From: an uncultured Clostridia bacterium
Lineage (GTDB): Bacteria > Bacillota > Clostridia > Christensenellales > UBA1242
Assembly: GCA_934757845.1 (NCBI GenBank)
Contig: CAKVLQ010000003.1
Location: 43,657-107,656, forward strand
DNA length: 64,000 nt
Direction: 5' to 3'
In this document: one piece after another, positions 17,837-32,491 of the stretch
How the letters are laid out: every line of letters starts with the position of its first letter
Position numbering within the stretch: position 1 is the first letter of the stretch
Translations under genes and position numbers: made by a program
The notes under the pieces: generated by a model
Told to the model about the DNA's origin: nothing
The model's database searches: none
Seen by the model: the letters and a program-made list of their open reading frames with translations, nothing else

Positions 17837-18046
17837 ATGAAATCAAAATCAAATTATGTAGTAATTGTTAATGCATGGAGATACAGCAAAAAATACTATT
17901 TCAAAAATTCAACTTCTGCTTATAACTTTTATTTAAAAAATAAAGAGAAATTTGAATGTTCAATTATTTGTAAAAATGAAATACAAACACATAAGCAGTT
18001 AAGTATGTTTTCAAATGAAATTAAAGAAAGGGAGGAAAAGTCATGA
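17837..18046 (+). CDS. small protein, family C copy 1
   Basis: Loose Y.V....(K/R)YY(F/T)...(S/K)A..(F/Y) pattern shared with 18043 and 19998. Confidence 0.45.
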   Translation: MKSKSNYVVIVNAWRYSKKYYFKNSTSAYNFYLKNKEKFECSIICKNEIQTHKQLSMFSNEIKEREEKS

Positions 18047-18207
18047 TAAGAGATAGTGAAATTTCAGTAGAAAAAACTTATTCAGGTGCAATCGTTATTT
18101 CAATGATTGTAAATGGAGTTTTAGAAACTAGAAGATATTTTTATGTTTCTGTCACCGAGGCAAAAAAACGTTTCAAAAATGAAATGGAAAATTTAATGAA
18201 TAGATAG
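18043..18207 (+). CDS. small protein, family C copy 2 (54 aa, below track cutoff)
   Basis: ATGA overlap with the upstream stop; GGGAGG RBS. Confidence 0.4.
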   Translation: MIRDSEISVEKTYSGAIVISMIVNGVLETRRYFYVSVTEAKKRFKNEMENLMNR

Positions 18208-18217
18208 GTAGGAATTT

Positions 18218-18454
18218 ATGAAAAGAGATTATAGATTAGTTTCTTGTATAAAAGGAACAAAACATTTTGAAAAACTTCATTATGGTTCTTCAGTAGAGTG
18301 TTGGCAAGAAAAAGTAAAAAAAGATGAAGCAGATGGCTGTGTTGTGAGAGTTAATTATGAATATAACGAAATTTTCAGAGAAGTTGTTATGACAAAATAT
18401 TATAGTTTTAATCCAAAAACAAAAATATCCGTTCTAATAACTTTACAAAAATAA
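18218..18454 (+). CDS. small protein, family A copy 2
   Basis: Contains KHFEKLHYGSSVECWQEK; GGTAGG RBS. Confidence 0.55.
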   Translation: MKRDYRLVSCIKGTKHFEKLHYGSSVECWQEKVKKDEADGCVVRVNYEYNEIFREVVMTKYYSFNPKTKISVLITLQK

Positions 18455-18456
18455 CG

Positions 18457-18633
18457 CTAATTAGCGTTATTAATTGAAGAAATCAAATTTTGTTTTAGGT
18501 TTTGAAAACTATCTTTAATGGTTTGGATGGCTTTTTGTGATAAGTTTTCATTTTGCAAGTGAAGTTCTAAAAGATATTTTTCACTTTCATCACAATGAAA
18601 TTTGATTTGATTAATAAGGTCTTGTTTATTCAT
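18457..18633 (-). CDS. small helical protein, family B copy 2 (58 aa, below track cutoff)
   Basis: Translated by hand: MNKQDLINQIKFHCDESEKYLLELHLQNENLSQKAIQTIKDSF... GGAG RBS. Stop lies inside the palindrome AACGCTAATTAGCGTT shared with 18218-18454. Confidence 0.5.
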   Translation of the reverse strand: MNKQDLINQIKFHCDESEKYLLELHLQNENLSQKAIQTIKDSFQNLKQNLISSINNAN

Positions 18634-18712
18634 TATATATACTCCTTAATTAATTTTTTAGTAGTATATCAAAAAATAAATAAAAAAACAAACAAAAAAA
18701 GGAAGGTAAAAA

Positions 18713-18940
18713 ATGAAAATAAATTCAAAAGAGTTAGGTAAAACAGAAGAAGGCTGGGATATAAAAGTTGTTACAAATGAAGATAACGGAAAGGTTACAT
18801 ATATTGGATATTTTGAAATAGGTCCAACAAAACCACCTGTAATGTTTTATTCTGAGCATTTAGAAGAATTAAAAGAAAAGATTAGTAAGTCAAAACATAA
18901 TATTAAAAACAAAAAAATGTTGTTTAGTTTTGCGAGGTAA
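18713..18940 (+). CDS. hypothetical protein
   Basis: AGGAAGG RBS. Confidence 0.45.
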   Translation: MKINSKELGKTEEGWDIKVVTNEDNGKVTYIGYFEIGPTKPPVMFYSEHLEELKEKISKSKHNIKNKKMLFSFAR

Positions 18941-18942
18941 AG

Positions 18943-19269
18943 ATGAAGCTTAAAAGTTTTATAACATCAATAATTACATCAATATTATCAATTGTGGGTT
19001 GTATTATTGTTAATTCGTTTAATGCTGGTCTTATTCCACTAGAGGGTGTTGAGTTGGCTCTTGCAAAAACGACATTAATAGTATTTTATATTTTAACAAT
19101 GATAATTACAATTCCATCAACAATAACTACATTAATTGCTTCAATTAGAGCTTGTTTTAGTGATAGTAAAACGATAAAAATAATTTCAATTGTTTTGTTA
19201 ATTTTGTCTCTTGGTTTGTGTGTTTTTTGCGGTTATGTAACTTATGTGGCTTATACAATGTATTTTTAA
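18943..19269 (+). CDS. small multi-TM membrane protein
   Basis: Three to four hydrophobic segments. Confidence 0.5.
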   Translation: MKLKSFITSIITSILSIVGCIIVNSFNAGLIPLEGVELALAKTTLIVFYILTMIITIPSTITTLIASIRACFSDSKTIKIISIVLLILSLGLCVFCGYVTYVAYTMYF

Positions 19270-19286
19270 AAAAGGAAGGTAAAAAG

Positions 19287-19406
19287 ATGTTAAATATAGC
19301 ATTAAAAATGAATGATAGCAAATATATCAATTACTTATGTTATTGTATTGAGAATAATTTGCATCCTGGCAAAATTGAAAGTTTAGACGCATTTCGTAAT
19401 AAATAA
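19287..19406 (+). CDS. hypothetical 39-aa protein
   Basis: AGGAAGG RBS before ATG 19287; the track start 19218 lacks an RBS. Confidence 0.3.
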   Translation: MLNIALKMNDSKYINYLCYCIENNLHPGKIESLDAFRNK

Positions 19407-19416
19407 AAAAGCGCTT

Positions 19417-19644
19417 TTAAAGCACTTTTTCAAGAGTGAAACATTGTAATTCTTTTGGTAGTTCAGTGTGGAAAATGAGTTGAAAGTTTTGTTTACATAG
19501 TTCATTGTTTAATTTTTCAAGTCCATATCTTTCAATTTGTTTAAATTCCTCATCAAATTGTGCGATTGACATTTTAATGGGTTTGTTGTCTTCTTGTTTA
19601 ATTTCGTTAAAATTTTTAATCAATTTTTCAATTAAATTGTTCAT
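19417..19644 (-). CDS. small protein in B position (copy 3, divergent)
   Basis: Same placement and same conserved upstream region as the B copies; sequence similarity is weak. Confidence 0.45.
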   Translation of the reverse strand: MNNLIEKLIKNFNEIKQEDNKPIKMSIAQFDEEFKQIERYGLEKLNNELCKQNFQLIFHTELPKELQCFTLEKVL

Positions 19645-19719
19645 ACATAACTCCTTAAATAATTTTTTAATAGTCTAGCAAATTTAAGATAAAAAATCAA
19701 ATAAAAGGTAGGTAAATTT

Positions 19720-20001
19720 ATGGTTCAAAGGAAATATCACAATATTACGATAGATAAAAGTGGACAAAAACGATTTTATGAAGGGTTTTATCGCAATAGT
19801 TCAATTAATTATTGGCAAAGATATAGACAAAGTTTTTTAAAAAATAATCCAACAGCAAGATTTAGTATTTTTACATCAAAATTTGATGCCACATTGGTTG
19901 ACAAAGTAATAATATTAAATTCTCAAAATGAGCAATACATAATTATTTCGGATAGCACTCTAAAACGAGAATATCCAGAATTTGTTAATAGGTGTATATG
20001 A
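19720..20001 (+). CDS. small protein, family A copy 3
   Basis: Contains KRFYEGFYRNSSINYWQRY. Confidence 0.55.
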   Translation: MVQRKYHNITIDKSGQKRFYEGFYRNSSINYWQRYRQSFLKNNPTARFSIFTSKFDATLVDKVIILNSQNEQYIIISDSTLKREYPEFVNRCI

Positions 20002-20168
20002 TTAAAACAATATATAAAGTCTACTGCGGGAAAAACGGCAAGTATTATACATATTTAGACTATAAAAAAGCCGAGAAACTATATTTTACACTTATGCTTC
20101 AAAACTACCACACCGCATTAGATGAAATAACAGACGGAAAAACAAAAAGATTATTAGAGCATAAGTAA
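19998..20168 (+). CDS. small protein, family C copy 3 (56 aa, below track cutoff)
   Basis: ATGA overlap with the upstream stop. Contains KVYCGKNGKYYTYLDYKKAEKLYF. Confidence 0.4.
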   Translation: MIKTIYKVYCGKNGKYYTYLDYKKAEKLYFTLMLQNYHTALDEITDGKTKRLLEHK

Positions 20169-20178
20169 GGGAGGAAAA

Positions 20179-21369
20179 ATGAATAAGCCATTAAAGATTA
20201 TATTAATAACAGTCTTAACAATATTAATGTTAGCATCATTTGCATCATGTTGTTTATACGGCTACATTAAACTATTTGCACCTGACAAAAGTGTTAGTTA
20301 CACAGTTAAAGGCGGAGTTTTAGACGGTGTGGAAGATGAAGATTTAAAGTTTATTTTCAACATTAGGCGTTATGACGATTTATTTGAAATAAGATTAAAT
20401 TCTTTTATTGACGAAACAAAAGAAGAAGTTTACGGCACAGGTATTCAATTTTTTAACCCTACTTTTGGCGAGAACATAACTCAAACTCAAAACTTTGTTT
20501 ACACAAAAGAATATTTTGCACTTCCGTTTTATGTGTATAACACATATCAAGATAATTCTTACACTGTTGAAAATTTTTCACCAGCAGAAACAACCGTTGA
20601 AGAAGCAGTAAGCAAATCACGAAATTTATACAAAAATGCATACTTCACAATCACTTTGGATAGTGATGTATACAAATTTACCTTTAAAGACGAAAATGTG
20701 GTAACCGAAACAAAACGGGGCTTTATAGGCTTATATTATGACACATATCAATATCACAATAACTTTATGAAACTTTGTTATGATTTATATCAATCTTCAA
20801 AATCGTTTAAAGAAGGAATAAACCAAGTATATTTGTTTAACTTTACCGATTATTTAGACTTTGCAAAATATGACGAAGCGTCAAAACAATATATCAAAAT
20901 AGTAAATGAAAAGTCTGACGAATATGCACATGTAACAAAACACATGAAAAGATTTTTTGGAGTTAAAGTTGACTGCTACAAAAGAAATGTTGAAAAAGCA
21001 AGTGAAAGTTTGTTTAATAGCGTTGCGGGAATGTATTCATATAACATAGGCAAAAACACCATGGCGTCTGATTATTTTGTTGGAGAAAGCCGAATTTGCT
21101 TAACCGAAAATGCTTTTGAATATAAATTTGACGAAAGAATGGGACATTTTCCAGTTCTAAAAGAAAGTGTTAAAGTCGAACTGCTAAAATATGAAAACAT
21201 CTCTATTGATATTGATTTTAACATGACAATTTTAAAAAATAATAAAATTAAAATGTTAACTATTGATAAAACGAAAATGAATTTAGGAAACTTGAAAATT
21301 CACAAAATCACAAAAACAACTTACACGGACGCAGGAGAAATTGAAAGTTCGGAGGTGGTAAATGTATAA
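20179..21369 (+). CDS. membrane-anchored extracellular protein
   Basis: N-terminal TM/signal anchor (LASFASCC) and a GGGAGG RBS. The KGG motif after the TM is shared with the next gene. Confidence 0.55.
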   Translation: MNKPLKIILITVLTILMLASFASCCLYGYIKLFAPDKSVSYTVKGGVLDGVEDEDLKFIFNIRRYDDLFEIRLNSFIDETKEEVYGTGIQFFNPTFGENITQTQNFVYTKEYFALPFYVYNTYQDNSYTVENFSPAETTVEEAVSKSRNLYKNAYFTITLDSDVYKFTFKDENVVTETKRGFIGLYYDTYQYHNNFMKLCYDLYQSSKSFKEGINQVYLFNFTDYLDFAKYDEASKQYIKIVNEKSDEYAHVTKHMKRFFGVKVDCYKRNVEKASESLFNSVAGMYSYNIGKNTMASDYFVGESRICLTENAFEYKFDERMGHFPVLKESVKVELLKYENISIDIDFNMTILKNNKIKMLTIDKTKMNLGNLKIHKITKTTYTDAGEIESSEVVNV

Positions 21370-22726
21370 TTTATTAGGAATTTTTAGCAGTTTAAAAGAA
21401 TTTATCACTTTGCTTATTATCCTTATAGTTGCGATAACTATATTTACAATATTATTCAAATTTAAAAATGGTAAATGGTTTTTGTTAGGTTTGTGTGGTT
21501 TGGCACTGCTTGTTTGTGGAGTATTTACGGCTTATGCCAATTATGAATACTTTACAATTAAGGGTGGAACGATAGGGTCATTTGGCGATATATTCGAAAA
21601 CAAAAACAAATTGATGCAAAACGAATTGAAATTTGATTTTGAAAATTTTGTTTTAATTGCATCGGGTAACAATGACAACGAATTTTCTGCAAGACTTGCG
21701 ATTGATGCCGTAAACCAAAAAATGACGGATAAAACTATATTTGTTAACGATATACCAACAAAAACTATAAATCGTGGCGATAACTATATATTTTCGGAAT
21801 ATAACTATACATTTTACGATGAGAACTTAAAAGAAAAATGCTCGGACACATTAACAATAAAATTTGTGTTTAATTCAAAAAGTTCAGAGTGTATTCTAAC
21901 AACGCAAGGTGGAATTGATAAAGTTGCCCATTGGAACTACTTTTTAAAGAAAAACAATTTTATTGTTGAAATAAAAAAATATGATTATATCCAAGACACC
22001 GAATTGAAAGTTGACGATGAGATAAATCATACTTTAACATTATATTTTCAAGACGAATTAATTGATATAATCAAGTTTAACATAACAAGCCCCGCAACCC
22101 TACCAACAACTTATAACGGTTTTGCAATAACTGCATGGAAAGATGCGGACGGGAATGTTTACACGCAATCAAATTTGCCAAATCAAGATTTGACTTTGTA
22201 TGCAACTATAAGTCAAACTAAAACATTTTTTGAAATAAATTCAACGAATTTAGTGAGAACCTTTATAACAGATGAGAGTTCCAAACGATATACTTGTAAA
22301 TTTGTTGGAGCATCATATACTCCAAAAATATATGACGATTTTTATGACTTACTTTATCAAAATCCAAACAATCATTTTAATGTAAAATTAAATTTATATG
22401 ATTTTTTGGGAGAAAATTTATCTTTCAACTCAAATGATAAAGGTAATTATGGTTCGCTCAATTCTTCACAACCCATTTCATTTTTTGATTATTTGGTTTC
22501 AACAGATAAAACGGAATATTATGAGGGGTCAAATGAGTTTTATTATAAATTCACTTTTGGTATAGAGCGTAGAAAAATAAATTCAGATTATATATTTACG
22601 CCTTATATTGATGTTGAAATAGTTTGTGCGACTGGTGATTGGAGTGATAGATATAATTTTGTGAAAAAAGATACAGCAAATAATACAATGAGTTTTTCAG
22701 TAACCTGTGAAATAAACAGAGTTTAG
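21362..22726 (+). CDS. membrane-anchored protein with a Listeria-Bacteroides (Flg_new-like) repeat
   Basis: Two N-terminal TM segments. Contains YNGFAITAWKDADGNVYTQ....DLTLYA. Overlaps the upstream gene by 8 nt. Confidence 0.55.
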   Translation: MYNLLGIFSSLKEFITLLIILIVAITIFTILFKFKNGKWFLLGLCGLALLVCGVFTAYANYEYFTIKGGTIGSFGDIFENKNKLMQNELKFDFENFVLIASGNNDNEFSARLAIDAVNQKMTDKTIFVNDIPTKTINRGDNYIFSEYNYTFYDENLKEKCSDTLTIKFVFNSKSSECILTTQGGIDKVAHWNYFLKKNNFIVEIKKYDYIQDTELKVDDEINHTLTLYFQDELIDIIKFNITSPATLPTTYNGFAITAWKDADGNVYTQSNLPNQDLTLYATISQTKTFFEINSTNLVRTFITDESSKRYTCKFVGASYTPKIYDDFYDLLYQNPNNHFNVKLNLYDFLGENLSFNSNDKGNYGSLNSSQPISFFDYLVSTDKTEYYEGSNEFYYKFTFGIERRKINSDYIFTPYIDVEIVCATGDWSDRYNFVKKDTANNTMSFSVTCEINRV

Positions 22727-22827
22727 TTAAAGCAAAATGAAATTTTTATATAAACTTCAAAAAAAAAGGTGGTGGTAATCAAATAAAATTTTAAAAAACA
22801 AAAATTTAAAAATATAGGAGGAAAATT

Positions 22828-23046
22828 ATGAAAACTTTAAAAAACATTTTGATATTTATTCTTGGAGCAGCACTTGCTGCGGGAGTTGTTCTTTTAGTTG
22901 TGTATAGAGATAAAATTTTTAAGAAAAACGACCAAAACCAAGAAGAAACACAAATTGAAGAAAAAACCGACACTAAAACCGATGAAATAGCAAAAACTGC
23001 ATCAATTACAATTTTAAGTGACGGTTCAACAAGATTAAACAAATAA
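22828..23046 (+). CDS. small single-TM protein
   Basis: 72 aa with an N-terminal TM segment and an acidic tail; GGAGG RBS. Confidence 0.5.
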   Translation: MKTLKNILIFILGAALAAGVVLLVVYRDKIFKKNDQNQEETQIEEKTDTKTDEIAKTASITILSDGSTRLNK

Positions 23047-23056
23047 AGGAGAAAAA

Positions 23057-24367
23057 ATGAGCAAAGTAGGAAAAACAATTTTAGGCACAACTCTTGCCAT
23101 ATTACTTGGCGGTGGCGGTGCTTATACGGGTTATGTCGCTATTCAAAAAACTAAACTAGAAAATGATAACAAAAATTTAACTGAAATCGTTGCAGTAAGA
23201 GATAAGGAAAAAGAAGACTTAACAAATAGGTTAACAATATCACTTTCAAATCAAAAACAAACTAGCGGATTAATAACAGGAATTTTTATTGCCGCAATTG
23301 CGAAAGATGTTGCTTCAACTGGTGATGTTCTCACAAATGAAGAATATCAAATCACCGAGAACGAATTTTATATGGTTGATGGTGACGAGGTATTTGCTTT
23401 TCCAATAACCGACATTGGTAATAACCAATTTGAAGTGAGATATGAAAATACACTTATGTTTACGCTAACGCCTCTTTATGACGAGAATTGTTATTGGATG
23501 CAAACAAGCGAAAATGTTATGCCTGCTAATGTGAGGATGTTGCTAGTAAAACAAACAGGTCCTGCTGATATGGTTCATGATGCTGCATTAAAACAATTTG
23601 AAAAAGACAGATTGGAATTAAACTCTTTGCGTGCTCAAATAACCACATTGACACAGGAAAAACAAGACCTACAAGAGCAATTAAGAATAAAAACCGAAGA
23701 ATATAACGAACAATTAGAAAAAGCAAATTCATGCGCAAGTGAAAATCAAACACTAATTGAACAAATCAATCAAAAACAAACAGAGATTGATGCACTTAAC
23801 ACACAAATAACAAACTTGCAAGAACAAATAACACAGTTGAAAGCCCAACTAGAAAGCGGAAAAACGGAAGAACCAACAACATTGTCAGCAGGGCTATATG
23901 AAACAGGGACTACAACACTAACAAAGTCATGGGAGCAATTAATTGCTGACGGAGATATATCAACCGCAGACGGACATTTGCAAGTTACAAATAAAAACCT
24001 TGCAGGCGACTTATTTTGCGAAAGTGTTGATGGTTTAACTTCTTTGAATAGTGCTTTTGAAGATTGTGAAAAATTAACTTTAATAGATTTGTCAAACCTT
24101 GATACGTCTAATGTTACAACAATGGAATGCTTGTTTTTCGGTTGCAATACATTAAGAACAATAAAATTAGGGCGATTTGATATTTCAAAAGTTATCGTGA
24201 GTGCTTCTGGTTTGATGTATTATGGTAATGCATTTTCTTGTAGTGTTTCAGATATATTTTATGCAGGAACAAAAGAAGAGTGGCAAGCAAAAAACTTTTC
24301 AGATGATGCTCAACTTCAACTAGGCGTAACCATTCATTGCACCGATGGCGATTTAGTTACGGAATAA
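23057..24367 (+). CDS. TM-anchored coiled-coil protein with C-terminal BspA-type LRR (26-residue surface repeat)
   Basis: N-terminal TM and a Q/E-rich coiled coil. Contains LTSLNSAFEDCEKLTLIDLSNLDTSNVTTMECLFFGC. Confidence 0.6.
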   Translation: MSKVGKTILGTTLAILLGGGGAYTGYVAIQKTKLENDNKNLTEIVAVRDKEKEDLTNRLTISLSNQKQTSGLITGIFIAAIAKDVASTGDVLTNEEYQITENEFYMVDGDEVFAFPITDIGNNQFEVRYENTLMFTLTPLYDENCYWMQTSENVMPANVRMLLVKQTGPADMVHDAALKQFEKDRLELNSLRAQITTLTQEKQDLQEQLRIKTEEYNEQLEKANSCASENQTLIEQINQKQTEIDALNTQITNLQEQITQLKAQLESGKTEEPTTLSAGLYETGTTTLTKSWEQLIADGDISTADGHLQVTNKNLAGDLFCESVDGLTSLNSAFEDCEKLTLIDLSNLDTSNVTTMECLFFGCNTLRTIKLGRFDISKVIVSASGLMYYGNAFSCSVSDIFYAGTKEEWQAKNFSDDAQLQLGVTIHCTDGDLVTE

Positions 24368-24381
24368 TTTTTATAAAATAA

Positions 24382-24404
24382 AAGAAGTAATATTTACTTC
24401 TTTT
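24382..24404 (+). terminator. rho-independent terminator
   Basis: AAGAAGTAA-tat-TTACTTCTT stem plus Ts. Confidence 0.6.
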
Positions 24405-24504
24405 GTGAACTTTTAGTTTAAAAGGTAAAACTATTAGGTTTTTTTTGGAAATTTTATTATTTTGCGGATAAAAATTTCATTTTGATGACTTCCTTCCTAA
24501 TAAT

Positions 24505-24532
24505 CACAGTTCAAGTCTGTGAAAGTTCACCA
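24505..24532 (+). other. orphan tRNA 3' fragment (T-arm, acceptor 3' strand, ACCA)
   Basis: CACAG-TTCAAGT-CTGTG then AAAGTTC-A-CCA. No D-arm or anticodon arm lies upstream. Differs from tRNA-Phe. Confidence 0.5.
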
Positions 24533-24608
24533 ATGTCTTACAGTGCGCAATGTAAGATTAAAAAGTTATAGTTCTTCTAAAAACTAAATTTAATTAAAGG
24601 AGAAAATT

Positions 24609-24896
24609 ATGGCGAAAGGACAGAGAGCTTATTTTAATAAACAAACAATGGGTCATCCAAAAACTACGAAAAATGGCAAGAAATTCACACTTTTGAATCC
24701 TCATGAAAAAGGCTGTAAAGCAGCTGTTGAATTGCGAACAGGTAGAAATGTCTATACTGGTGAATTTTTAAACGAAAGACAAAGAGCGTATCGTAGTGGT
24801 TATCTTGCTGCTCAAAATGACAGTGCAAGATGTTATAATGCAAAGAATAAGAAAAATGCAAATGGTTTTACTTATTCTGATGTTGAGGAGGTTTAA
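24609..24896 (+). CDS. basic hypothetical protein
   Basis: AGGAG RBS; lysine/arginine-rich, 95 aa. Confidence 0.5.
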   Translation: MAKGQRAYFNKQTMGHPKTTKNGKKFTLLNPHEKGCKAAVELRTGRNVYTGEFLNERQRAYRSGYLAAQNDSARCYNAKNKKNANGFTYSDVEEV

Positions 24897-24898
24897 TT

Positions 24899-25093
24899 TT
24901 GAATTTGACAAAAAAACAAATTGAAATTATACAGCGATATACTCCGGAAGAATTAAAGGGCAAACAAATTCGTTTATATGCAACATTGGGGTCTTTTCGA
25001 CCATCTATGGCAAATTGGTCGTATATTGTTGGTTATGTGTTGTATAAAGGCGTTTATGTTTTGGTTGTAACATGTTTCGGAGAAATACTTTAA
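24899..25093 (+). CDS. hypothetical protein with hydrophobic C-terminus
   Basis: TTG start after GGAGG. Confidence 0.35.
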   Translation: MNLTKKQIEIIQRYTPEELKGKQIRLYATLGSFRPSMANWSYIVGYVLYKGVYVLVVTCFGEIL

Positions 25094-25186
25094 AAAGCAA
25101 TTAAAAAAGTGTAAGACTAAACTACGGTTTAGCAATGTTAAATTACTTTAATATTTAATAATTTAAATTATATTTAGGAGATAATT

Positions 25187-25504
25187 ATGAAAGGAATTAA
25201 AAAAATAGAATTAGTAGATAAAAAAAGTTCAAAAGGTAAAGAATATTCTGTTATTGAGGTAACGATGAGTAATGATAAATCTTTTGATTTATTCTTGGAT
25301 TCTGCTACAAAAGATTTAATTGATGTGGTTGGAAAAGAAGATGTAAATTTAAATTATGTTGAAAAAGAAAGTAAAGAAGGCAAAAAATTTAATGCTATTG
25401 AACTTAAGTTGAATAGTGATGATAATTACACAAAACTTTATTTTATTGATAAAGCGTATGAATTAATTATTAAAAAATTAAGTGAAAAAGTTGCTATAAA
25501 ATAA
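25187..25504 (+). CDS. hypothetical protein with internal two-fold repeat
   Basis: KKSSKGKEYSVIEVTM... and KESKEGKKFNAIELKL... repeats; AGGAG RBS. Confidence 0.5.
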   Translation: MKGIKKIELVDKKSSKGKEYSVIEVTMSNDKSFDLFLDSATKDLIDVVGKEDVNLNYVEKESKEGKKFNAIELKLNSDDNYTKLYFIDKAYELIIKKLSEKVAIK

Positions 25505-25508
25505 TGAT

Positions 25509-25581
25509 AAATAACGAAAAACGAGGCATATTTTGCCTTGTTTTCACTAACTAGGCAAGTATGTTAGTGCTGATGAGTTTT
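25509..25581 (+). ncRNA. hammerhead ribozyme motif, type II topology, copy 1
   Basis: C25515-GAA, stem III 25519-28/25534-43, H17 U25544, stem I 25545-51/25563-69 (7 bp perfect), CUGAUGA 25570-76 and G25577. Stem II is AU-rich and weak. Confidence 0.65.
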
Positions 25582-25592
25582 CTTGCGTTCCA

Positions 25593-25656
25593 ATCGAAAC
25601 TAGGCTATGAAAATGGCCTAGTCTATTAAATTTGACTAATTTAATACTGATGAGAT
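25593..25656 (+). ncRNA. hammerhead ribozyme motif, type II topology, copy 2
   Basis: C25595-GAA, stem III 25599-606/25615-22, GUC with C25623, stem I 25624-32/25638-46 (9 bp perfect), CUGAUGA 25647-53 and G25654. Stem II has only 3-4 bp. Confidence 0.65.
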
Positions 25657-25679
25657 AAGTCAAAAAAAAAGGAGGCTAA

Positions 25680-26000
25680 ATGGAATACCAAAATCGTTCT
25701 GTTGGGGATAAAATACGATATTATAGTTCGTTATCTAAAAAGGGCTCAAGGGATAAGAACGGAAAGTTGTTAAGTGATTTTAAACGTGGAGAATGCCTAG
25801 GAAAATCGTTAATGCTTAGTTATTGCGCAAGAAATATAAAAAAGGTTAAACAGCGAATTCAAAAAGAATTTTTTGCGGAATTGAAAAAATGTAAGCCAAA
25901 TTTGAATGAGAGAAGATATACAGATGCGGATTTAAATGCGCTTTTTGATAATTTGAAAGAAGTTGATATTTTTACTAATTCAATGGATGATATAGTTTGA
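25680..26000 (+). CDS. hypothetical protein
   Basis: GGAGG RBS; overlaps the next gene by 4 nt. Confidence 0.5.
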   Translation: MEYQNRSVGDKIRYYSSLSKKGSRDKNGKLLSDFKRGECLGKSLMLSYCARNIKKVKQRIQKEFFAELKKCKPNLNERRYTDADLNALFDNLKEVDIFTNSMDDIV

Positions 26001-26815
26001 TAACTGTTATTTCAGCGCTTCCAGGTTTTGGTAAAACCTTGTTATTTTCGTATCTAATGGCACAAAAAACTTGCATAGAAGGTTATGATTTATATCGCAA
26101 TAGTTGTAAGTTGATAGAAAAATATAATAATAATGGGTTTAAATTTAGTTATCCAAAGCAAAAACATGTTACATATTTTAATGGACATGCTCGTATTAGC
26201 GTTATGGGTAGACCAGTTAAAATTCCTTATGTATTAAACCCTTGGTATTTGGGACTTCCAACAAAAGAAAGTGAAGTCGATTTAGTTCTTCCAGGTTCTG
26301 TATTGTTTATAGATGAGGCTCAAAGATATTATAATTCAAGAATGTCTTATTATTTCCCCGATTATGTATCTAGATTTTATGAAATGCATAGGCATTATAG
26401 ATTAACAATTTATTTGATTGCTCAAAGAGCAGGGCTTATTGATAAAAATATAAGAAGTATTGCACAAGAATTTATTTATATTGATAGGCTTGAAAAAGAA
26501 GAAGATTCTCTTGGGAATTTAATTCAAGCAAAATGGTATATACATAGATTTAATTGTTATAGTGATTTAGAAAAATATGAAGAAGGTAATAAGGAATTAG
26601 GCACGGAAGATATAATTGTTTGTAATGAGAATTTGTATAAGTTTTTTGATACACATTTCTTTGAATTTTTATATCTTAATGGAAATCAGGATTTTTCGCA
26701 AGAATGGTTAAGACCATACAGATTAATGCCTGATATATGTGAAAAATTAAAAGAAGTTTGGTCAGCAACTCCACCACCAACTTTTTTTGGCGATAAAAGG
26801 GTTGCAGAAGCATAA
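25997..26815 (+). CDS. Zot-like / filamentous-phage pI-like P-loop ATPase
   Basis: Walker A at the extreme N-terminus (MITVISALPGFGKT) and Walker B VLFIDEAQRYY. No TM segment seen. Confidence 0.5.
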   Translation: MITVISALPGFGKTLLFSYLMAQKTCIEGYDLYRNSCKLIEKYNNNGFKFSYPKQKHVTYFNGHARISVMGRPVKIPYVLNPWYLGLPTKESEVDLVLPGSVLFIDEAQRYYNSRMSYYFPDYVSRFYEMHRHYRLTIYLIAQRAGLIDKNIRSIAQEFIYIDRLEKEEDSLGNLIQAKWYIHRFNCYSDLEKYEEGNKELGTEDIIVCNENLYKFFDTHFFEFLYLNGNQDFSQEWLRPYRLMPDICEKLKEVWSATPPPTFFGDKRVAEA

Positions 26816-26829
26816 AAAGGGAGAATATT

Positions 26830-27438
26830 ATGGGTAAAGAAAAAGAAGTTGTTACAATTAAAAAAGTAAAGAAAAATAAGAGAAATAAGACTAAAAAATA
26901 TAGCATTATAAATGTTTTAGACGTTTTGCAAGAGCGATATTTTGGCTTATATGATACTTTATCTCAACATACAGAAGGTTGTTTGTCTGGTGATATGTAT
27001 GGCAAGATGGATGCAATGATGACTGACGATTATAATAATTCTATTAACAATTTAGAGTTTTTAAGTAAAAAAGGAATGAAATATCTTAAAAAGAAAGACT
27101 GTAAAGAACGTAGTAAAATTTTTTGGTATAAATTTCGCAGGTTTTTTGGGTGCAAAATTAATGATGAAATAGAGCAATTAATTTTAAAACGAGAAAAATT
27201 TAATTATGAAATGGCTAAATTATTTGAAGACCCTATTTCGTCAAGTATAAGAAAGCAAATCGAAGAGCCTGAACTTATAGAAGAACCGATAGATGAAGAG
27301 CCTGACTATGTTACGGACTCTGAAGATTTAATAGCGGGTCAAAAAGCGGAGCGGATAATTCAACCAGAAATAGTAGAACAAGAACAATTAGAAGCTCAAA
27401 AACAAAACTCAATAGAGTATAAAGCAGATAATAATTAA
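26830..27438 (+). CDS. hypothetical protein, basic N-terminus and acidic C-terminus
   Basis: GGGAG RBS. Confidence 0.5.
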   Translation: MGKEKEVVTIKKVKKNKRNKTKKYSIINVLDVLQERYFGLYDTLSQHTEGCLSGDMYGKMDAMMTDDYNNSINNLEFLSKKGMKYLKKKDCKERSKIFWYKFRRFFGCKINDEIEQLILKREKFNYEMAKLFEDPISSSIRKQIEEPELIEEPIDEEPDYVTDSEDLIAGQKAERIIQPEIVEQEQLEAQKQNSIEYKADNN

Positions 27439-27453
27439 TTTTTAGCTTACCTG

Positions 27454-27521
27454 TGAGTATTTTTAACCAAAGGTTATGAGTATGGAGAAAAAAAATGAGT
27501 ATTATTGCAAAGCATGAGTAT
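27454..27521 (+). repeat. four direct (A/G)TGAGTAT repeats
   Basis: TGAGTAT at 27454, 27477, 27496 and 27515, with 19-23 nt spacing, upstream of the origin hairpin. Confidence 0.5.
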
Positions 27522-27567
27522 CTTTATAGCAAATTTGCTTGCAAATTTGTGCCCCGCAGGGGCAATT

Positions 27568-27607
27568 CGCAGTTGCTAAAGGTTAGTATTACCCTTTAGC
27601 AACTGCG
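27568..27607 (+). promoter_or_regulatory. rolling-circle origin stem-loop with TAGTATTAC nonanucleotide
   Basis: Perfect 15-bp stem CGCAGTTGCTAAAGG / CCTTTAGCAACTGCG. The 10-nt loop TTAGTATTAC has TAGTATTAC at 27584-27592. Confidence 0.75.
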
Positions 27608-27709
27608 TAACATCGTAACATAACATTTTGAAACCCTTATAAATAAAGGGATTGATAAGTTTTTAACTGCGTAACATATTGGCGTTTTGACTGTGTAACT
27701 GCGTAACAT
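27601..27709 (+). repeat. three perfect 13-nt iterons AACTGCGTAACAT
   Basis: Copies at 27601-13 (overlapping the right arm of the stem), 27665-77 and 27697-709. An extra CGTAACAT half-copy lies at 27614-21. Confidence 0.7.
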
Positions 27710-27742
27710 ACATATTATTTTTTTGATTGGAGCAAATGAGAT

Positions 27743-28684
27743 ATGTCAGAAACAATGAAAAGACGGTGGTGTCTCACTATGAATAATGAGCCACGGTCTT
27801 TGGAAGAACTTAGCGAGTATATAAAAAATTTAGAGCACTTTAAGTATGCAATCTTTCAAAGAGAAGTTGGAGAGCAGAAAGGAACTCCGCATATACAGGC
27901 TTTTATAATATTTTCAGTTGGAAAACGATTTTCTACTATGAAAAACTATTTTCCAGAAGCACATATTGAAGAAGCAAAGGGAACGAATGTTCAGGCTAGA
28001 GATTATTGTTCAAAGAAGGAAACTCGAGTTGAAGGTCCTGTTGAAATTGGGGCATTTGCAGAAGAAAGAGCAAGAACCGATATAAGTAATTTTATGGAGT
28101 TAGTAAAATTAAACACATCTAACGAGGAACTTGAAAAGTTATATCCTAAACTTTATTTAAACAATATTAATAAAATTGAAAGTATTAAAGAACGTGCAAG
28201 ATATGATGAATTTCGGGTTAAGTTGCGAGATATAAATGTTACTTATATTTATGGCAAGCCTGGTATAGGTAAAACGAGTTATATAATAAGTAAGCACCCG
28301 TTAGGAACTTATTATGATGTGCCGTTTTATGGAAATGGAAATTTTGATAATTATAATGGCGAAGATATTATTGTATTTGATGAGTTTACTGGAAAAATAG
28401 ATATTACTTTAATGAATAAACTTCTTGATAGGTATCCAATGCAGTTACCTTCACGGTATTCAAACAAAATTGCTTGTTATACAAAAGTTTATATTGTTTC
28501 AAATTTGCCAATTAGTGAACTTTATAAAAATGATAGAGAAAATGGATTGTTTTATGCATTTTTAAGAAGAATACATACGATTATTAGAATAGATGAAAAA
28601 GGTTTTCACTATGAAAAAAGAACAGTGAATAATATGGCTATTGAATTAATAGAAGAAGGTGGTGAAAATTATGAAAAAAAATAA
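27743..28684 (+). CDS. rep: HUH endonuclease plus SF3 helicase replication initiator (CRESS-DNA-virus / pCRESS-plasmid type Rep)
   Basis: Motif I WCLTMNN, motif II PHIQAFI, motif III DYCSKK, Walker A GKPGIGKT, Walker B IIVFDEF and motif C YIVSN. 313 aa. Confidence 0.8.
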   Translation: MSETMKRRWCLTMNNEPRSLEELSEYIKNLEHFKYAIFQREVGEQKGTPHIQAFIIFSVGKRFSTMKNYFPEAHIEEAKGTNVQARDYCSKKETRVEGPVEIGAFAEERARTDISNFMELVKLNTSNEELEKLYPKLYLNNINKIESIKERARYDEFRVKLRDINVTYIYGKPGIGKTSYIISKHPLGTYYDVPFYGNGNFDNYNGEDIIVFDEFTGKIDITLMNKLLDRYPMQLPSRYSNKIACYTKVYIVSNLPISELYKNDRENGLFYAFLRRIHTIIRIDEKGFHYEKRTVNNMAIELIEEGGENYEKK

Positions 28685-28750
28685 CTGTAAAAAAGAAACT
28701 TAAACAAAAGGGTAAGATTAAATATCAAAAAGAAATAAAGGGAGAAAATT

Positions 28751-29173
28751 ATGAAAGAAAAAGAGAGATATGAAATAGCGGATTTTGAACTTGGAGAGCC
28801 ATCAGTAATGTTTGATAACAAAACACAACAAATAATTTTAACTCTTGAAAATTATTGTTATAATGAAATTTATAAATTAGTTGATTTACTCAACCAGCAA
28901 GACGAAGAAATTAAAGAATTAAAACAACATTCATTAAATGATAAAGAATGGCAAGATTATTGTATTTATAAGAGAATAGAACCACAAATTAAAGGTTGTT
29001 TGGATAGAGAAAATAAACTAATAAAAGAAAACCAACAACTTAAACAATCACAAAAAGAACTTGCTATTAGTGAATCGGATAAGTTGTTTTATAATTTACA
29101 AGGAATGAAACACACCACAAATTTGACAATCATAAGGAGCCTATACGAGTGTATAAAAGGTGGCAAGTGTTAG
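28751..29173 (+). CDS. coiled-coil hypothetical protein (paralog 1)
   Basis: Shares LLNQQDEEIKE and ENQQLKQSQKELAI with the next gene. Confidence 0.5.
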   Translation: MKEKERYEIADFELGEPSVMFDNKTQQIILTLENYCYNEIYKLVDLLNQQDEEIKELKQHSLNDKEWQDYCIYKRIEPQIKGCLDRENKLIKENQQLKQSQKELAISESDKLFYNLQGMKHTTNLTIIRSLYECIKGGKC

Positions 29174-29215
29174 AGTGTATTAATAATCAAATCAAAGAAT
29201 TAAAGGGAGAAAAAT

Positions 29216-29599
29216 ATGGAAAAAAAAGAAAGATATAAATTAATTTATAATGATGAAGAACTGGGCAAGGCAATTATTGATACAGAAGAAGACCTAAGTG
29301 ATGACATTCATAGTTGGAATATTCTGTGTGATTTACTCAACCAGCAAGATAAAGAGATTAAATATTTTCAGAAATTAAATATAGAAATTATCATGCAAAA
29401 TAAGAACATTATAAAAGATGCAGAAATTATAAATCAAGAAAACCAACAACTCAAACAATCACAAAAAGAACTTGCTATAAATGAACTTGAAAAAGCAAAA
29501 AATTTGGCATGTAATGTCATAATAGACCTTGGTTATACAGCTAGACAAATTAACAATTTTCTAGACAATCAAATCAAAAGAATAAAAGAAGGTAAATAA
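29216..29599 (+). CDS. coiled-coil hypothetical protein (paralog 2)
   Basis: 41-nt near-identical block 29438-29478 versus 29025-29065. Confidence 0.5.
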   Translation: MEKKERYKLIYNDEELGKAIIDTEEDLSDDIHSWNILCDLLNQQDKEIKYFQKLNIEIIMQNKNIIKDAEIINQENQQLKQSQKELAINELEKAKNLACNVIIDLGYTARQINNFLDNQIKRIKEGK

Positions 29600-29602
29600 A
29601 CT

Positions 29603-30487
29603 ATGGATATAAACGAAATAATGATAAAAGAAGAAAAAGAATTAACAGAAAGTCAAGCAAAGTTTGTATTGATACATAACAACATTTTAAACGCTGGGGC
29701 AATGATAACTAATAGTGTCATATCATTATCTAAAAATTTAAAAGTTATGAGAGATGAAAAATTGTATTTAGAAGCCGATTGTGAAACTTTTGAAGATTAT
29801 GCAGAAAAAATATGTGGATTAAAACGAAGACAAGCATATAAATACATTCAAGTGTTAGAACAATTAGGTGAAGATTTTGTGCACTCGAGTGCACAAATAG
29901 GTATTACAAAATTATCAATGCTTTCATCACTTCCTGAAGAAGAAAGACAAGCAGTAATTGAAACAGTCGATATAGAAGATTCTAGTGTAACAGAATTAAA
30001 ATCTGAAATTGAAAAATTAACTAAAAAGAATACTGAGTTTGAGAATAAATTTAAAGACAAAGAGGATAAATATAAATACTCTATTGCGGAACTGGAAAAA
30101 GAATTGACTAAACTAAAAGATGAGTTGTCTAAAAAATCTACTCAAATGGAAAAGATAGAAGATGATAAAAAAGTTTCTTCGAATGTCCAAAATGAAGAAT
30201 TAGAAAAGTTGAAAGAAAAAATTAAAAAACTAGAAGGAGAAAAATTATCACAGGAAAATATTTCAAAAATGCATGAGCGGTCTTTGACAAAAATTCAAAA
30301 CAAATGTGAGAGCCTTCAAAAACAATTGGAGATAAATAATTCAACAGCGTTAGTGGAATTCAAATTTAGGTTTGAAGAATTACAGCAAAATATTTATGCA
30401 ATAAATAATTTGATTTCTCGTGTTCCTGAAGATAAAAGAGAAAATTGTAAATTAGCGTTAAAGAAGGTGGTGGAAACATTATGTTAA
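29603..30487 (+). CDS. putative DNA-binding protein (HTH) with long coiled coil
   Basis: FEDYAEKICGLKRRQAYKYIQV HTH-like segment, then a K/E-rich coiled coil. Confidence 0.45.
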   Translation: MDINEIMIKEEKELTESQAKFVLIHNNILNAGAMITNSVISLSKNLKVMRDEKLYLEADCETFEDYAEKICGLKRRQAYKYIQVLEQLGEDFVHSSAQIGITKLSMLSSLPEEERQAVIETVDIEDSSVTELKSEIEKLTKKNTEFENKFKDKEDKYKYSIAELEKELTKLKDELSKKSTQMEKIEDDKKVSSNVQNEELEKLKEKIKKLEGEKLSQENISKMHERSLTKIQNKCESLQKQLEINNSTALVEFKFRFEELQQNIYAINNLISRVPEDKRENCKLALKKVVETLC

Positions 30488-30807
30488 AAAAAGAATTTAT
30501 TTTAATGCAAAGACAGGATTTGGAAACAAGCAATAATTTAGTTTTTAAACAGTTATTAAATGCCGTAGAAGAAGTTTTAGAAGATTATCCGGATTATATA
30601 GATTTTAATTCTAATTTAACTATAGAAGATTGCTATGAAAAAATGAGAACTAGAGCAAAACAAAAAGCAGTTAATAATTGTTACTGTTTTACACCAAAAG
30701 AAACAAAAGAGTTTATTATAGAATATTTAAGTTTAAAAGATATTAAACAAAAAGATTCTATAAATACTACAAAAACAAATTTTATAAATTTAGAAGATTT
30801 TATATAG
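30481..30807 (+). CDS. PcfK-like protein (tentative)
   Basis: About 108 aa, immediately upstream of a PcfJ-like gene as in enterococcal conjugative plasmids. Called from position and size only. Confidence 0.3.
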   Translation: MLKKEFILMQRQDLETSNNLVFKQLLNAVEEVLEDYPDYIDFNSNLTIEDCYEKMRTRAKQKAVNNCYCFTPKETKEFIIEYLSLKDIKQKDSINTTKTNFINLEDFI

Positions 30808-30815
30808 GTGGTAAT

Positions 30816-32312
30816 ATGGCATATATAAAAGTTGAAGATAGAAAATTATTAAAAGAAGTTTGTGATTGTTGTAATAGAGATAATTTACCAAAAGATATTG
30901 ATATTTGGCTTGATAAAACGGTTTTTAAAGAACATAGGTATTTGTTTTATAAAAAAACTGAAAATAATGTTTTAGGTTATTGCCAAAATTGTAAATGCGA
31001 AAATATGGTTATCAAAAAAGATAAATCACAAAGATTTATATATTGTCTTAATTGCCATGGGAAGATGAAATTAAAAAATATTAAATTTAAAGAATGTTGC
31101 GATAGAGATTATTTTCAATATGTAACAAAATTGTCTGATGAAACTTTTATTTTAAGAACATTTAGGGTTGAACGAATTACACATTATTTAAGCATTAAAT
31201 ATGTTTATTTTGAAATGCAAAGACTGTTGTTTAAAATTGATTTTTTTAATAGTAATGTTTATTTTCATCGATATTATAGGGAATATAATTCTGATTGGAC
31301 TTTGGGTTATTATAAAAATATGGCGTATACTTTGCCAGATTGTTTATATGTATATAATAAAAACTTAATGATGTTTAATATTGGCCATTTAAAATATTTG
31401 CCTTTAAATAAATTTTGTTTGAATACTAAAATAGATTTATATAGTTTTTTTAAATCTTACTACAAATTTCCGCAATATGAATATTTGATTAAGTTAAAGT
31501 TGTATAATTTAGTATCAGATTTTGTAGATAGAGATTACTTGTCTTATAAAAATTATGATGCTAAAGAAAATAATATAATTAAGTTTTTAAAACTTGAGAA
31601 GCCATATTTTAAATATTTAATTAATCATAATTTAGATTCCTTTGATTTTAATAGTTTACAGTATTTACAAAAATATAATATTAAACCTAGTAAAAAAGAT
31701 TTAGAATTTATGCATGTGTTTAAATCGGCGTTTAATTCTGATGATGTTTTTAAAACAATTAGTTATACTTCGTTAAAAAAATATTATTTTAAAACTTTAA
31801 AAGATTATAATAATTTAAGGGATTATGGAGATTATTTAGAAAATGCAAAAATATTGAAATATGATTTATCAGATACGAAATATTTAAAACCTAAAGATTT
31901 TAAAATAGCTCATGATATGGCTTATATGAAAGTGGAGTCAATAAAAAATAAATCGTTATATGATGCGGTTCAATCAAAATGTAAAAAATATCAAAAATTA
32001 AAATATGAGAGTAAAAAATATTCCATAGTTGTGCCAAAAAGGGCCGAGGATATTATTCAAGAAGGAATTGATAATCATAACTGTGTAGGTTCATATTTAG
32101 GTCGTGTTAAAGACGGTAATTCAATTATTTGTTTTGTTCGACATAGTGATAGTTTAAATAAAAGTTTTTATACATTGGAGCTTAACCCAAAAACTTTGAA
32201 GGTTGAGCAGTGTCGAGGGTATTCAAACGGGACAACACCAGAAGAAACAGCTGTTCAAAAATTTGTAACTGCTTGGCGAAAAAATATAGTATTAAAGAAA
32301 ATGAAGATATAA
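30816..32312 (+). CDS. PcfJ-like protein
   Basis: N-terminal Cys-rich fingers. C-terminal EGIDNHNCVGSYLGRV..G.SIICFVR....FYTLEL......QCRGYSN recalled as the PcfJ signature. Confidence 0.5.
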   Translation: MAYIKVEDRKLLKEVCDCCNRDNLPKDIDIWLDKTVFKEHRYLFYKKTENNVLGYCQNCKCENMVIKKDKSQRFIYCLNCHGKMKLKNIKFKECCDRDYFQYVTKLSDETFILRTFRVERITHYLSIKYVYFEMQRLLFKIDFFNSNVYFHRYYREYNSDWTLGYYKNMAYTLPDCLYVYNKNLMMFNIGHLKYLPLNKFCLNTKIDLYSFFKSYYKFPQYEYLIKLKLYNLVSDFVDRDYLSYKNYDAKENNIIKFLKLEKPYFKYLINHNLDSFDFNSLQYLQKYNIKPSKKDLEFMHVFKSAFNSDDVFKTISYTSLKKYYFKTLKDYNNLRDYGDYLENAKILKYDLSDTKYLKPKDFKIAHDMAYMKVESIKNKSLYDAVQSKCKKYQKLKYESKKYSIVVPKRAEDIIQEGIDNHNCVGSYLGRVKDGNSIICFVRHSDSLNKSFYTLELNPKTLKVEQCRGYSNGTTPEETAVQKFVTAWRKNIVLKKMKI

Positions 32313-32314
32313 AA

Positions 32315-32344
32315 ACAGAGGATATAAAATCCTCTGTTTTTTTT
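32315..32344 (+). terminator. rho-independent terminator at the right end of the element
   Basis: ACAGAGGA-tataaaa-TCCTCTGT stem plus a T8 run. Confidence 0.65.
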
Positions 32345-32373
32345 AATAAAATAAAGACTAAAATTAACTTAAA

Positions 32374-32396
32374 ACTTGTATCAAAACTTGTATCAA
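32374..32396 (+). repeat. tandem arm-type repeats ACTTGTATCAA x2 (12-nt period)
   Basis: Copies at 32374-32384 and 32386-32396, about 50 nt inside attR. They share T(G/T)GTATCAA with the left-arm repeats, in the same orientation. Confidence 0.6.
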
Positions 32397-32445
32397 TGTG
32401 AAGCAATCCCTTTATTTGTCGAATGTTTATTGCTATTTTGTCCTC

Positions 32446-32491
32446 ACTGAAAATCCTCGTGTCGGTGGTTCGATTCCGCCTCGAGGCACCA
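32446..32491 (+). repeat. attR core (orphan copy of the tRNA-Phe 3' part)
   Basis: 46/46 identity with 13555-13600. No tRNA 5' half lies upstream. Confidence 0.9.

Follow-up and report, generated by a model that had tools for sequence, protein, structure and literature searches.

We analyzed a 64,000-nucleotide stretch of contig CAKVLQ010000003.1 from an uncultured Clostridia bacterium (hereafter the window) and conclude that positions 27439-28684 are very probably a working rolling-circle replication module, made of a double-strand origin and its initiator, that belongs to an 18.9-kb temperate element integrated at a tRNA-Phe gene. The initiator is a replication protein (Rep) of the kind used by CRESS viruses, circular single-stranded DNA viruses that encode a Rep, and the origin is a hairpin that carries the nonanucleotide TAGTATTAC in its loop. 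We base this on protein domains and catalytic residues, the anatomy of the origin, its conservation and covariation among relatives, the co-variation of Rep and its iterated repeats, the attachment sites of the element, and synteny. The module is a clean, fully bounded and apparently intact bacterial relative of circovirus, nanovirus and other CRESS replication systems, with an origin that can be read base by base.

The open reading frame (ORF) at 27743-28684 (+ strand) encodes a 313-aa protein that had been proposed, in an earlier reading made from the sequence alone (the sequence-only reading), to be a CRESS-type HUH-SF3 Rep. Homology searches confirmed it as a homolog of circovirus and nanovirus Reps, while a look-up of the exact 313-aa sequence matched no recorded entry. 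Its HUH endonuclease (~residues 7-105) matches Pfam Viral_Rep (PF02407; 56.4 bits, E = 3.7e-15, residues 7-91, cut-off 26) and its SF3 helicase (~residues 165-280) matches RNA_helicase (PF00910; 24.5 bits, E = 4e-5, residues 168-252, cut-off 21.5), both above the curated thresholds. Alignment to the structure of the porcine circovirus 2 (PCV2) Rep, 7LAR, spans residues 7-278 (E = 3.8e-25), and several further solved Rep endonuclease-domain structures also match. All six motifs listed by the sequence-only reading are found in the translation, at their places and in the expected order: WCLTMNN (9-15), PHIQAFI (49-55) and DYCSKK (87-92) in the nuclease, followed by GKPGIGKT (171-178), IIVFDEF (209-215) and YIVSN (250-254) in the helicase. 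In an alignment of 25 homologs, the metal-binding H50 and Q52 and the catalytic Y88 and K91 are invariant, as are G176-K177-T178 of Walker A, E214 of Walker B and N254 of motif C. Motif II has the HxQ form seen in circoviruses, and there is a single catalytic tyrosine. A pC194/pMV158-type Rep was rejected, given the presence of an SF3 domain and a different Pfam family. Comparison with an 81% identical homolog at a related locus (loci are designated by L numbers; here L005) gave dN/dS = 0.11 at dS ~1, showing that the rep gene is under purifying selection.

Circovirus origins consist of a stem-loop with TAGTATTAC or AAGTATTAC and short direct repeats 3' of the stem. The window has this design (27568-27607, + strand): a perfect 15-bp stem, with arms at 27568-27582 and 27593-27607, encloses the loop TTAGTATTAC (27583-27592), within which the nonamer TAGTATTAC occupies 27584-27592. 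The hairpin is located 135 nt 5' of the Rep ATG; as at circovirus and nanovirus origins, NANTATTAC is thus held in a stem-loop of the intergenic region beside rep, and iterated repeats that are predicted to bind Rep adjoin the stem. Folded as single-stranded DNA (ssDNA), 27545-27625 reaches -23.6 kcal/mol (z = -8.0), a value that none of 200 shuffles equaled, in a structure that contains the origin hairpin plus a GC hairpin at 27550-27564. A chance hairpin was rejected on this z-score of -8 together with conservation across the family.

Three exact copies of the 13-nt iteron AACTGCGTAACAT start at 27601, 27665 and 27697 and a degenerate copy at 27609; the exact iteron is absent from the rest of the 64 kb. 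The stem-loop with its nonamer and the three iterons were therefore as the sequence-only reading had described them. What that reading did not mention is a proximal tandem pair, CGTAACAT CGTAACAT (27606-27621, +), which overlaps the 3' arm of the stem and is the feature conserved across the family. The distal iterons (27665-27677 and 27697-27709, +) overlap promoter-like -10 hexamers, and the two promoter-like hexamer sets, 27652-27680 and 27687-27716, each end within one of them. This overlap makes it plausible that Rep regulates its own expression through the distal iterons.

We further investigated whether the origin is kept in relatives, a survey that the sequence-only reading had called for. 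A single-sequence search returned one relative in genome contigs and none in viral contigs; an alignment query was then used and gave 80 metagenomic loci with Reps 33-65% identical. We counted a hairpin where a perfect stem of 8 bp or more enclosed an N-A-N-T-[A/G]-TTAC loop no further than 700 nt upstream of Rep; 51 related loci qualified and relaxed folding criteria added another 8, so that the hairpin is kept in at least 59 related loci. In 1.29 Mb (both strands counted), 59 such hairpins were found on the Rep strand and 0 on the opposite one. Among 50 non-redundant hairpins, the loop holds TAGTATTAC in 42, AAGTATTAC in 5, GAGTATTAC in 2 and TAGTGTTAC in 1, while the inner stem takes 38 distinct sequences. 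A tandem repeat (at least 6 nt, period 7-8) starts at the 3' arm in 35/50 hairpins, versus 219/5000 (4.4%) random segments. In many relatives the hairpin is 58-85 nt ahead of the Rep start.

The stem itself covaries. Loop-length classes were aligned separately, as a mixed MAFFT alignment misplaced the 5' arm, and only the 10-nt-loop class, with 16 hairpins, was scored: each of the 8 stem pairs varies on both sides, with a covariation of 1.21 versus 0.23 in shuffles (0/500 reach it) and at most 0.26 in slid-partner controls. Individual relatives illustrate the pattern. The L002 hairpin shows a compensatory change from AAAGG/CCTTT to AATGG/CCATT, with loop TAGTGTTAC; L003 and L005 retain TAGTATTAC while every iteron ends in TCGCAT; and L001, from a GC-richer Clostridia metagenome-assembled genome, has a different stem, the loop TACTATTAC and CGGAACA repeats. 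Conservation, covariation and concerted iteron change all bear out the claim of a circovirus-like origin, and these sequence comparisons support a role of the nonamer hairpin and iterons as an origin of replication.

We observed that the iteron sequence tracks Rep substitutions beside motifs I and II. Mean identity of the Rep nuclease domain is 0.71 within an iteron class and 0.45 between classes, although this tracking of Rep clades is partly just phylogeny. Close pairs are more telling than class averages. The window and L005 share a ~300-nt intergenic region that is nearly identical and conserved beyond synonymous sites, yet all iteron copies differ (27606-27709 vs L005 1140-1250), reading TAACAT in the window and TCGCAT in L005, an AA to CG change; the L005 iteron is CGTCGCAT against CGTAACAT in the window. 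In sequence terms, the pattern resembles a concerted change in the specificity of the origin. Likewise, L075 and L076 have 93% identical nuclease domains, yet their iterons differ (GTGTAAAA and TGTAACAT, respectively); the few substitutions between the two Reps are concentrated at residue 6 and at residues 53-65 (window numbering), flanking motifs I and II. Beside these same two motifs, Londoño et al. (2010) reportedly mapped what determines DNA-binding specificity in the Reps of geminiviruses, nanoviruses and circoviruses. The module thereby offers a tractable bacterial system for Rep-origin specificity.

The window Rep belongs to the pCRESS world of bacterial Reps, as had been suggested. Kazlauskas 2019 (PMC6668415) defined pCRESS1-9 and found 97.5% of the Reps that fall outside groups 7 and 9 within elements integrated site-specifically. 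By pairwise identity to sequences typed from the supplementary alignment of that study, the window Rep is closest to pCRESS2 references (42.6% and 36.6%), followed by pCRESS3, which includes the plasmid p4M (34.9% and 32.2%), and pCRESS1 (26%). Like the Reps of pCRESS2 elements, it is a bacterial HUH-SF3 protein in the p4M-like cluster, and its element, too, is found in gut bacteria and is integrated site-specifically, with att repeats and an integrase. Kazlauskas 2019 (PMC6668415) does not describe the replication origin, and mentions no nonanucleotide, iteron or stem-loop.

p4M of Bifidobacterium pseudocatenulatum (NC_003527, pCRESS3) is the only PLSDB plasmid record that matches the window Rep, its RepA being 34-35% identical over 90% of the query. 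Its origin (L152 2429-2475) has the same design as that of the window: the hairpin GTGGGCGG-CATAGTGTTAC-CCGCCCAC is followed by tandem GTACCA repeats, and the hairpin and then GTACCAGTACCAG lie ~45 nt ahead of the repA start, between a gene with an FtsK/SpoIIIE domain and repA. In both cases a P-loop ATPase is encoded directly upstream, but it is of the FtsK/SpoIIIE type in p4M and Zot-like in the window; p4M is moreover a free 4.5-kb actinobacterial plasmid without integrase, whereas the window element is integrated. With PCV2, homology covers both nuclease and helicase, and the HxQ motif II and single catalytic tyrosine are in common. PCV2 is however a eukaryotic virus of 1.7-2 kb with a capsid gene and no integrase, while the window module is part of an 18.9-kb bacterial element, and the window origin differs from that of circoviruses in its 15-bp stem and its 8-13-nt iterons with extra distal copies.

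The same origin appears in Rfam under another name. The consensus of RF03070, 'ssNA-helicase RNA', combines a stem and its UUAGUAUUAC loop with two tandem repeats, and the window origin matches it over its full length (39.4 bits, E ~1e-4). Six related loci (L142, L127, L144, L149, L082 and the Zot-linked L118) pass the family threshold with 43.7-57.4 bits. On sequence grounds we consider the origin to be the same object as this Rfam motif, and the window copy to be a divergent homolog just below threshold. The family presumably comes from Weinberg et al. 2017. The motif is not discussed in the main text of PMC5737381. In the literature we searched, 'ssNA-helicase' returned only one unrelated benchmarking paper, 'bajarodino' (a group of viral genomes discussed below) returned none, and TAGTATTAC in bacterial plasmids or p4M returned nothing relevant; this limited search gave no account of a nonamer-iteron pCRESS origin and none equating it with RF03070. 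The element class, the link to Zot and the origin motif are thus all already in public literature or databases. The nonamer hairpin with abutting iterons is common to the p4M-like (pCRESS2/3) cluster, p4M included, and this is apparently unstated in the literature searched, as is the tracking of Rep substitutions by iteron sequence. What we add is a description of the origin across the family, its identification with the Rfam motif and a Zot-linked sublineage. The shared design strengthens the scenario in which CRESS viruses derive from plasmids, with the origin architecture inherited together with the protein.

The element that carries the module is sharply delimited. An exact 46-bp direct repeat, ACTGAAAATCCTCGTGTCGGTGGTTCGATTCCGCCTCGAGGCACCA, is found at both ends of an island of ~18.9 kb (13601-32491): attL (13555-13600, +) is the 3' half of a tRNA-Phe gene (13525-13600), and attR (32446-32491, +) is a duplicate of this half. 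Just inside attL, a tyrosine integrase (13751-14851, -) matches Pfam Phage_integrase (E = 2.4e-13, 50.6 bits, cut-off 27.1) and also has an N-terminal SAM-like domain. The left flank is a tRNA cluster and the right flank holds apparent host genes. Integration through a tyrosine integrase, as the sequence-only reading had it, is therefore well founded, and so is its view of an intact copy, with a complete ORF, catalytic residues in place and purifying selection. At L002, whose Rep is 68% identical, the gene order from the integrase to the last gene, encoding a PcfJ-like protein, is identical, beside sporulation genes of another host locus. An identical copy of the element is also present in an independent sequencing run, ERR7738630 (contig L151).

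Biochemical work on the Reps of circoviruses, nanoviruses and geminiviruses suggests how the module may work. The integrase would recombine attL with attR, and the element would leave as a circle. Rep would be expressed from the promoter-like sites that overlap the distal iterons, and would bind the tandem CGTAACAT pair beside the hairpin as well as the two distal AACTGCGTAACAT copies. Extrusion of the hairpin would expose TAGTATTAC in the loop, where the HUH domain, using H50 and Q52 to hold the metal and Y88 as nucleophile, is predicted to cut TAGTATT/AC between 27590 and 27591 and to remain bound to the 5' end. The SF3 helicase would then unwind the duplex while a host polymerase extends the 3'-OH. 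After one round, Rep would cut and rejoin the regenerated origin, freeing a single-stranded circle, and Rep bound at the distal iterons would probably repress the rep promoter too. The ssDNA product might be converted to double strand again, or pass to the conserved Zot-like ATPase module upstream, which would export or package it.

Several observations weigh against a functional replication module or temper its support. The nonamer alone is uninformative: one copy is found in the window versus 0.42 expected, and it is present in 34/100 shuffles. The significance of the origin therefore lies in the hairpin, the iterons, the position beside Rep and the conservation in relatives rather than in the nonamer. 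The window origin scores 2 bits under the RF03070 gathering score of 41.5. In ~20 related loci no hairpin was found, many of them having little upstream sequence. The hairpins scored for covariation were chosen for perfect stems, which makes 100% pairing true by construction; the independent evidence for the origin is for this reason the diversity of pair types and the exclusivity of strand and position. Finally, contig L151, which covers 24334-32475, stops inside attR and shows no excision junction or circle.

We then considered what kind of element the module serves, a question that centers on the Zot-like protein. This 272-aa P-loop ATPase (25997-26815, +) matches Pfam Zot (E = 4.1e-8, 33.4 bits, cut-off 20.3) and phrog_197 (Zot-like, E = 2e-13). 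No transmembrane (TM) segment is predicted in it, none reaching a Kyte-Doolittle value of 1.6 over 19 residues with this crude predictor. In 21 loci, an iterative search over the ORFs of all loci placed a same-strand Zot homolog 0.2-1.7 kb upstream of Rep. The Reps of these loci share 41% or more identity with the query, with the addition of L118 and two bajarodino genomes, and Zot is present at nearly every locus that combines a Rep of at least ~41% identity with an upstream flank of 1.2 kb or more. At more distant Reps (33-37% identical) Zot is missing, and an integrase is encoded directly 3' of Rep instead. The sequence-only reading had pointed to the link between Rep and Zot and called the combination unusual; the link stands, but in close relatives it is the rule, and it was already on record. 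Indeed, a supplementary table of Kazlauskas 2019 (PMC6668415) lists a Zot/'I assembly protein' seven genes from Rep in a pCRESS2 element of Hungatella hathewayi (CZAZ01000001), although FtsK-type translocases and 2k5d-like single-stranded DNA-binding proteins, not Zot, are what pCRESS1 and pCRESS2 elements typically encode. Roux 2019 (PMC6813254) likewise described an inovirus Rep family, iPF_00203, of 56 sequences annotated 'RCR + helicase' with Viral_Rep, and called its S3H domain typical of eukaryotic ssDNA viruses; these inoviruses share with the window the pairing of Zot with a Viral_Rep/S3H Rep.

One possibility, to which we give somewhat less than even chances, is that the island is a temperate filamentous prophage related to inoviruses, in which Zot and the membrane-anchored proteins encoded at 20179-24367 would extrude ssDNA circles as virions. 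Among 50,697 phage records, relatives of the window Zot are found in inoviruses only. The bajarodino viruses 13 and 30 (PQ006184 and PQ006165), circular genomes from rodent feces deposited as Inoviridae, have a homologous Rep (33-38% identity), the hairpin and Zot on circles of 7.8-9.3 kb with typical coat-like small proteins, and the 56 inovirus-like sequences with a Viral_Rep and S3H Rep point the same way. Bajarodino virus 12 (PQ006185), a free 9.8-kb circle, has the Zot closest to that of the window (31.6% identity over 86%, E = 1e-27), also TM-less, and resembles the island in how integrase, repressor and large TM proteins are arranged and in encoding an acidic-tailed protein after Zot. 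It has no CRESS-type Rep, unlike the window, and the absence of this Rep from an otherwise shared layout shows that the replication module is exchangeable. We note in this genome (L153) an unannotated 1.5 kb without a long ORF, 1980-3531, at the position of the origin and Rep.

The fit to a filamentous phage is nevertheless imperfect. An element of 18.9 kb is large for an inovirus and twice the size of bajarodino viruses 13 and 30, and a plasmid-type PcfJ gene is aboard. The window Zot has no TM segment, a feature that Roux 2019 required for genuine pI and that bajarodino virus 30 Zot does have; Zot of L002 is TM-less as well. Among the island ORFs, no classical small hydrophobic coat protein was found beside Zot and, apart from Zot, no ORF had a structural match in PHROG. 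Atypical coat candidates are a 72-aa single-TM ORF (22828-23046) and a 64-aa ORF (24899-25093) with a hydrophobic C-terminus. The former, the sole candidate when the prophage reading is weighed, has a long acidic tail and no counterpart in L002.

A filamentous phage and an integrative plasmid are about equally likely. An integrative plasmid in the pCRESS2 sense of Kazlauskas 2019, which again falls a little short of an even bet, would use a soluble Zot in place of the FtsK/SpoIIIE translocase for DNA transfer or segregation. Kazlauskas 2019 (PMC6668415) termed such elements integrated plasmids and found no viral structural genes in them. The FtsK/SpoIIIE ATPase of p4M occupies the position of Zot, directly 5' of the origin and repA, and the Zot-less distant relatives with an integrase beside Rep, the membership of PcfJ in a conjugative-plasmid family, the TM-less Zot and the failure to find a coat protein all agree with this view. 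On the other hand, the Zot relatives in phage records are all within inovirus genomes, several relatives with both Zot and Rep are small complete circles with coat-like proteins, and neither a relaxase, a coupling protein nor another conjugation gene was detected among the island ORFs scanned. Whichever holds, the Zot linkage calls into question the stated absence of virus-type morphogenesis genes from pCRESS elements.

A broader proposal, which we regard as rather doubtful, is that Zot-linked pCRESS2-type elements form a distinct temperate ssDNA phage lineage of Clostridia-like bacteria, with filamentous or other ssDNA export and a complete circovirus-type module of HUH-SF3 Rep, TAGTATTAC hairpin and iterons adjoining it. 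If it were true, the whole replication system of eukaryotic CRESS viruses, origin grammar included, would already be in use by bacterial viruses as well as by plasmids, and a TM-less Zot together with the missing classical coat protein would represent a new morphogenetic variant.

It is highly improbable that the module is a decaying or domesticated remnant that no longer replicates. Many chromosomal copies of such Reps exist, as this idea would have it, but here the ORF is intact with all catalytic residues and a low dN/dS, the 46-bp att repeats are perfect and the integrase intact, and the origin is conserved beyond synonymous sites with iterons that changed in concert. Just as improbable in our view is that the hairpin works as an RNA, either cis-regulatory or a small RNA in the rep leader: Rfam does class the motif as an RNA gene, and the short hairpin-Rep distance in many relatives allows transcription, but the loop does not vary and holds the nonamer that is nicked at circovirus and nanovirus origins, an HUH nuclease gene is always present, the flanking iterons follow Rep specificity, and the promoter-like sites of the window are 3' of the hairpin. 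The hairpin could still have a dual role, as DNA and as RNA. A working rolling-circle origin with its initiator therefore remains our preferred interpretation of 27439-28684.

The origin region holds further repeats, of which the (A/G)TGAGTAT repeats, the tandem pair and the GC-rich hairpin are present as the sequence-only reading had listed. Four (A/G)TGAGTAT repeats (27453-27521, +), the last three spaced 19 nt, are conserved in L005. They are followed by the palindromic pair GCAAATTTG/CAAATTTGC and the GC-rich hairpin GCCCCGCAGGGGC (27529-27564, +), seen as repeats and in the ssDNA fold; the GCAAATTTG pair (27529-27549) doubles as an inverted repeat. Counterparts of the palindromic pair and GC hairpin sit 5' of the origin hairpin in L002, L005 and L001, and they may be auxiliary or complementary-strand origin elements. 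Between the iterons, a small hairpin, CCCTTATAAATAAAGGG (27634-27650, +), is an exact 17-mer with a second copy at 13617-13633, just inside attL, where it is terminator-like with a T-run. It is also found in the origin regions of L003 and L005, and 0 window shuffles yield 3 matches at 3 or fewer mismatches. The sole other window match to the nonamer-hairpin rule is a terminator-like hairpin at 24381-24405 (- strand), AAAAGAAG/CTTCTTTT with the minus-strand loop TAAATATTA. It lies just before a tRNA-like element described below and most likely resembles the origin only by chance, the DNA being AT-rich.

The rest of the island has an ordered layout. Its 5' part consists of the integrase and a cI/Cro-type helix-turn-helix repressor (15667-15996, -; Pfam HTH_3, E = 1.3e-13), with a repressor at the matching position in L002 and bajarodino virus 12, followed by a run of small plus-strand ORFs and by genes for three large proteins (20179-24367), for two of which N-terminal TM segments are predicted. 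A conserved block then runs, in order, through a tRNA-like element, ORFs of 95, 64, 105 and 106 aa, Zot, a 202-aa ORF, the origin and Rep, and is followed by the PcfJ-like gene. The 202-aa protein (26830-27438, +), which has an acidic C-terminal tail, has homologs in L002 and L005; bajarodino virus 12 encodes at its position a 229-aa acidic-tailed protein without detectable sequence similarity. The PcfJ-like protein (30816-32312, +; Pfam PcfJ, E = 1.6e-34) is the final gene of the island, as it is in L002. Pfam and PHROG assigned no function to the 95-, 64-, 105-, 106-, 202-, 396- and 454-aa island proteins. Some of the small ORFs look like paralogs (window 17311-17589, 18218-18454 and 19720-20001; L002 1471-1707 and 1898-2140) and share, by eye in the translations, the motif SS(V/I)xYWQ(K/R)Y ... 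(V/F)x(V/M)x(F/Y)EY.

The sequence-only reading had also tied the module to hammerhead motifs, a claim that did not hold up: only sub-threshold cores were found. No hammerhead model reached its Rfam gathering score across the window or E <= 1 in a 20-kb scan of the island, and a regular expression for the type I/III arrangement of CUGANGA, helix II and GAAA had no match. Between the 105- and 106-aa ORFs (25549-25660, +) there are two CUGAUGA ... CGAAAC cores with a stem III hairpin followed by GUC; a focused scan gave them at best 23.3 bits, for RAGATH-1-hammerhead (25549-25628), versus a cut-off of 56.3. The core motifs are real, but from sequence a ribozyme is not established. At L076 3331-3393 (+), Hammerhead_II scores 36.3 bits versus a threshold of 37.

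The tRNA-like element that opens the conserved block (24407-24532, +; L002 6677-6810) is syntenic in the window and L002. It has a 53-65-nt insert in the anticodon region, ends in ACCA and shows compensatory changes in the acceptor and T stems. The two copies score 39.5 and 40.7 bits with the Rfam tRNA model (cut-off 29) and were missed by ARAGORN and by Rfam with default filters. Related Rep elements also neighbor tmRNA or tRNA genes, at distances of a few kb or less (L084 5626-5995, L118 15345-15695, L100 1504-3251, L081 1-82 and 16938-17009), which suggests that the family commonly integrates at small-RNA genes.

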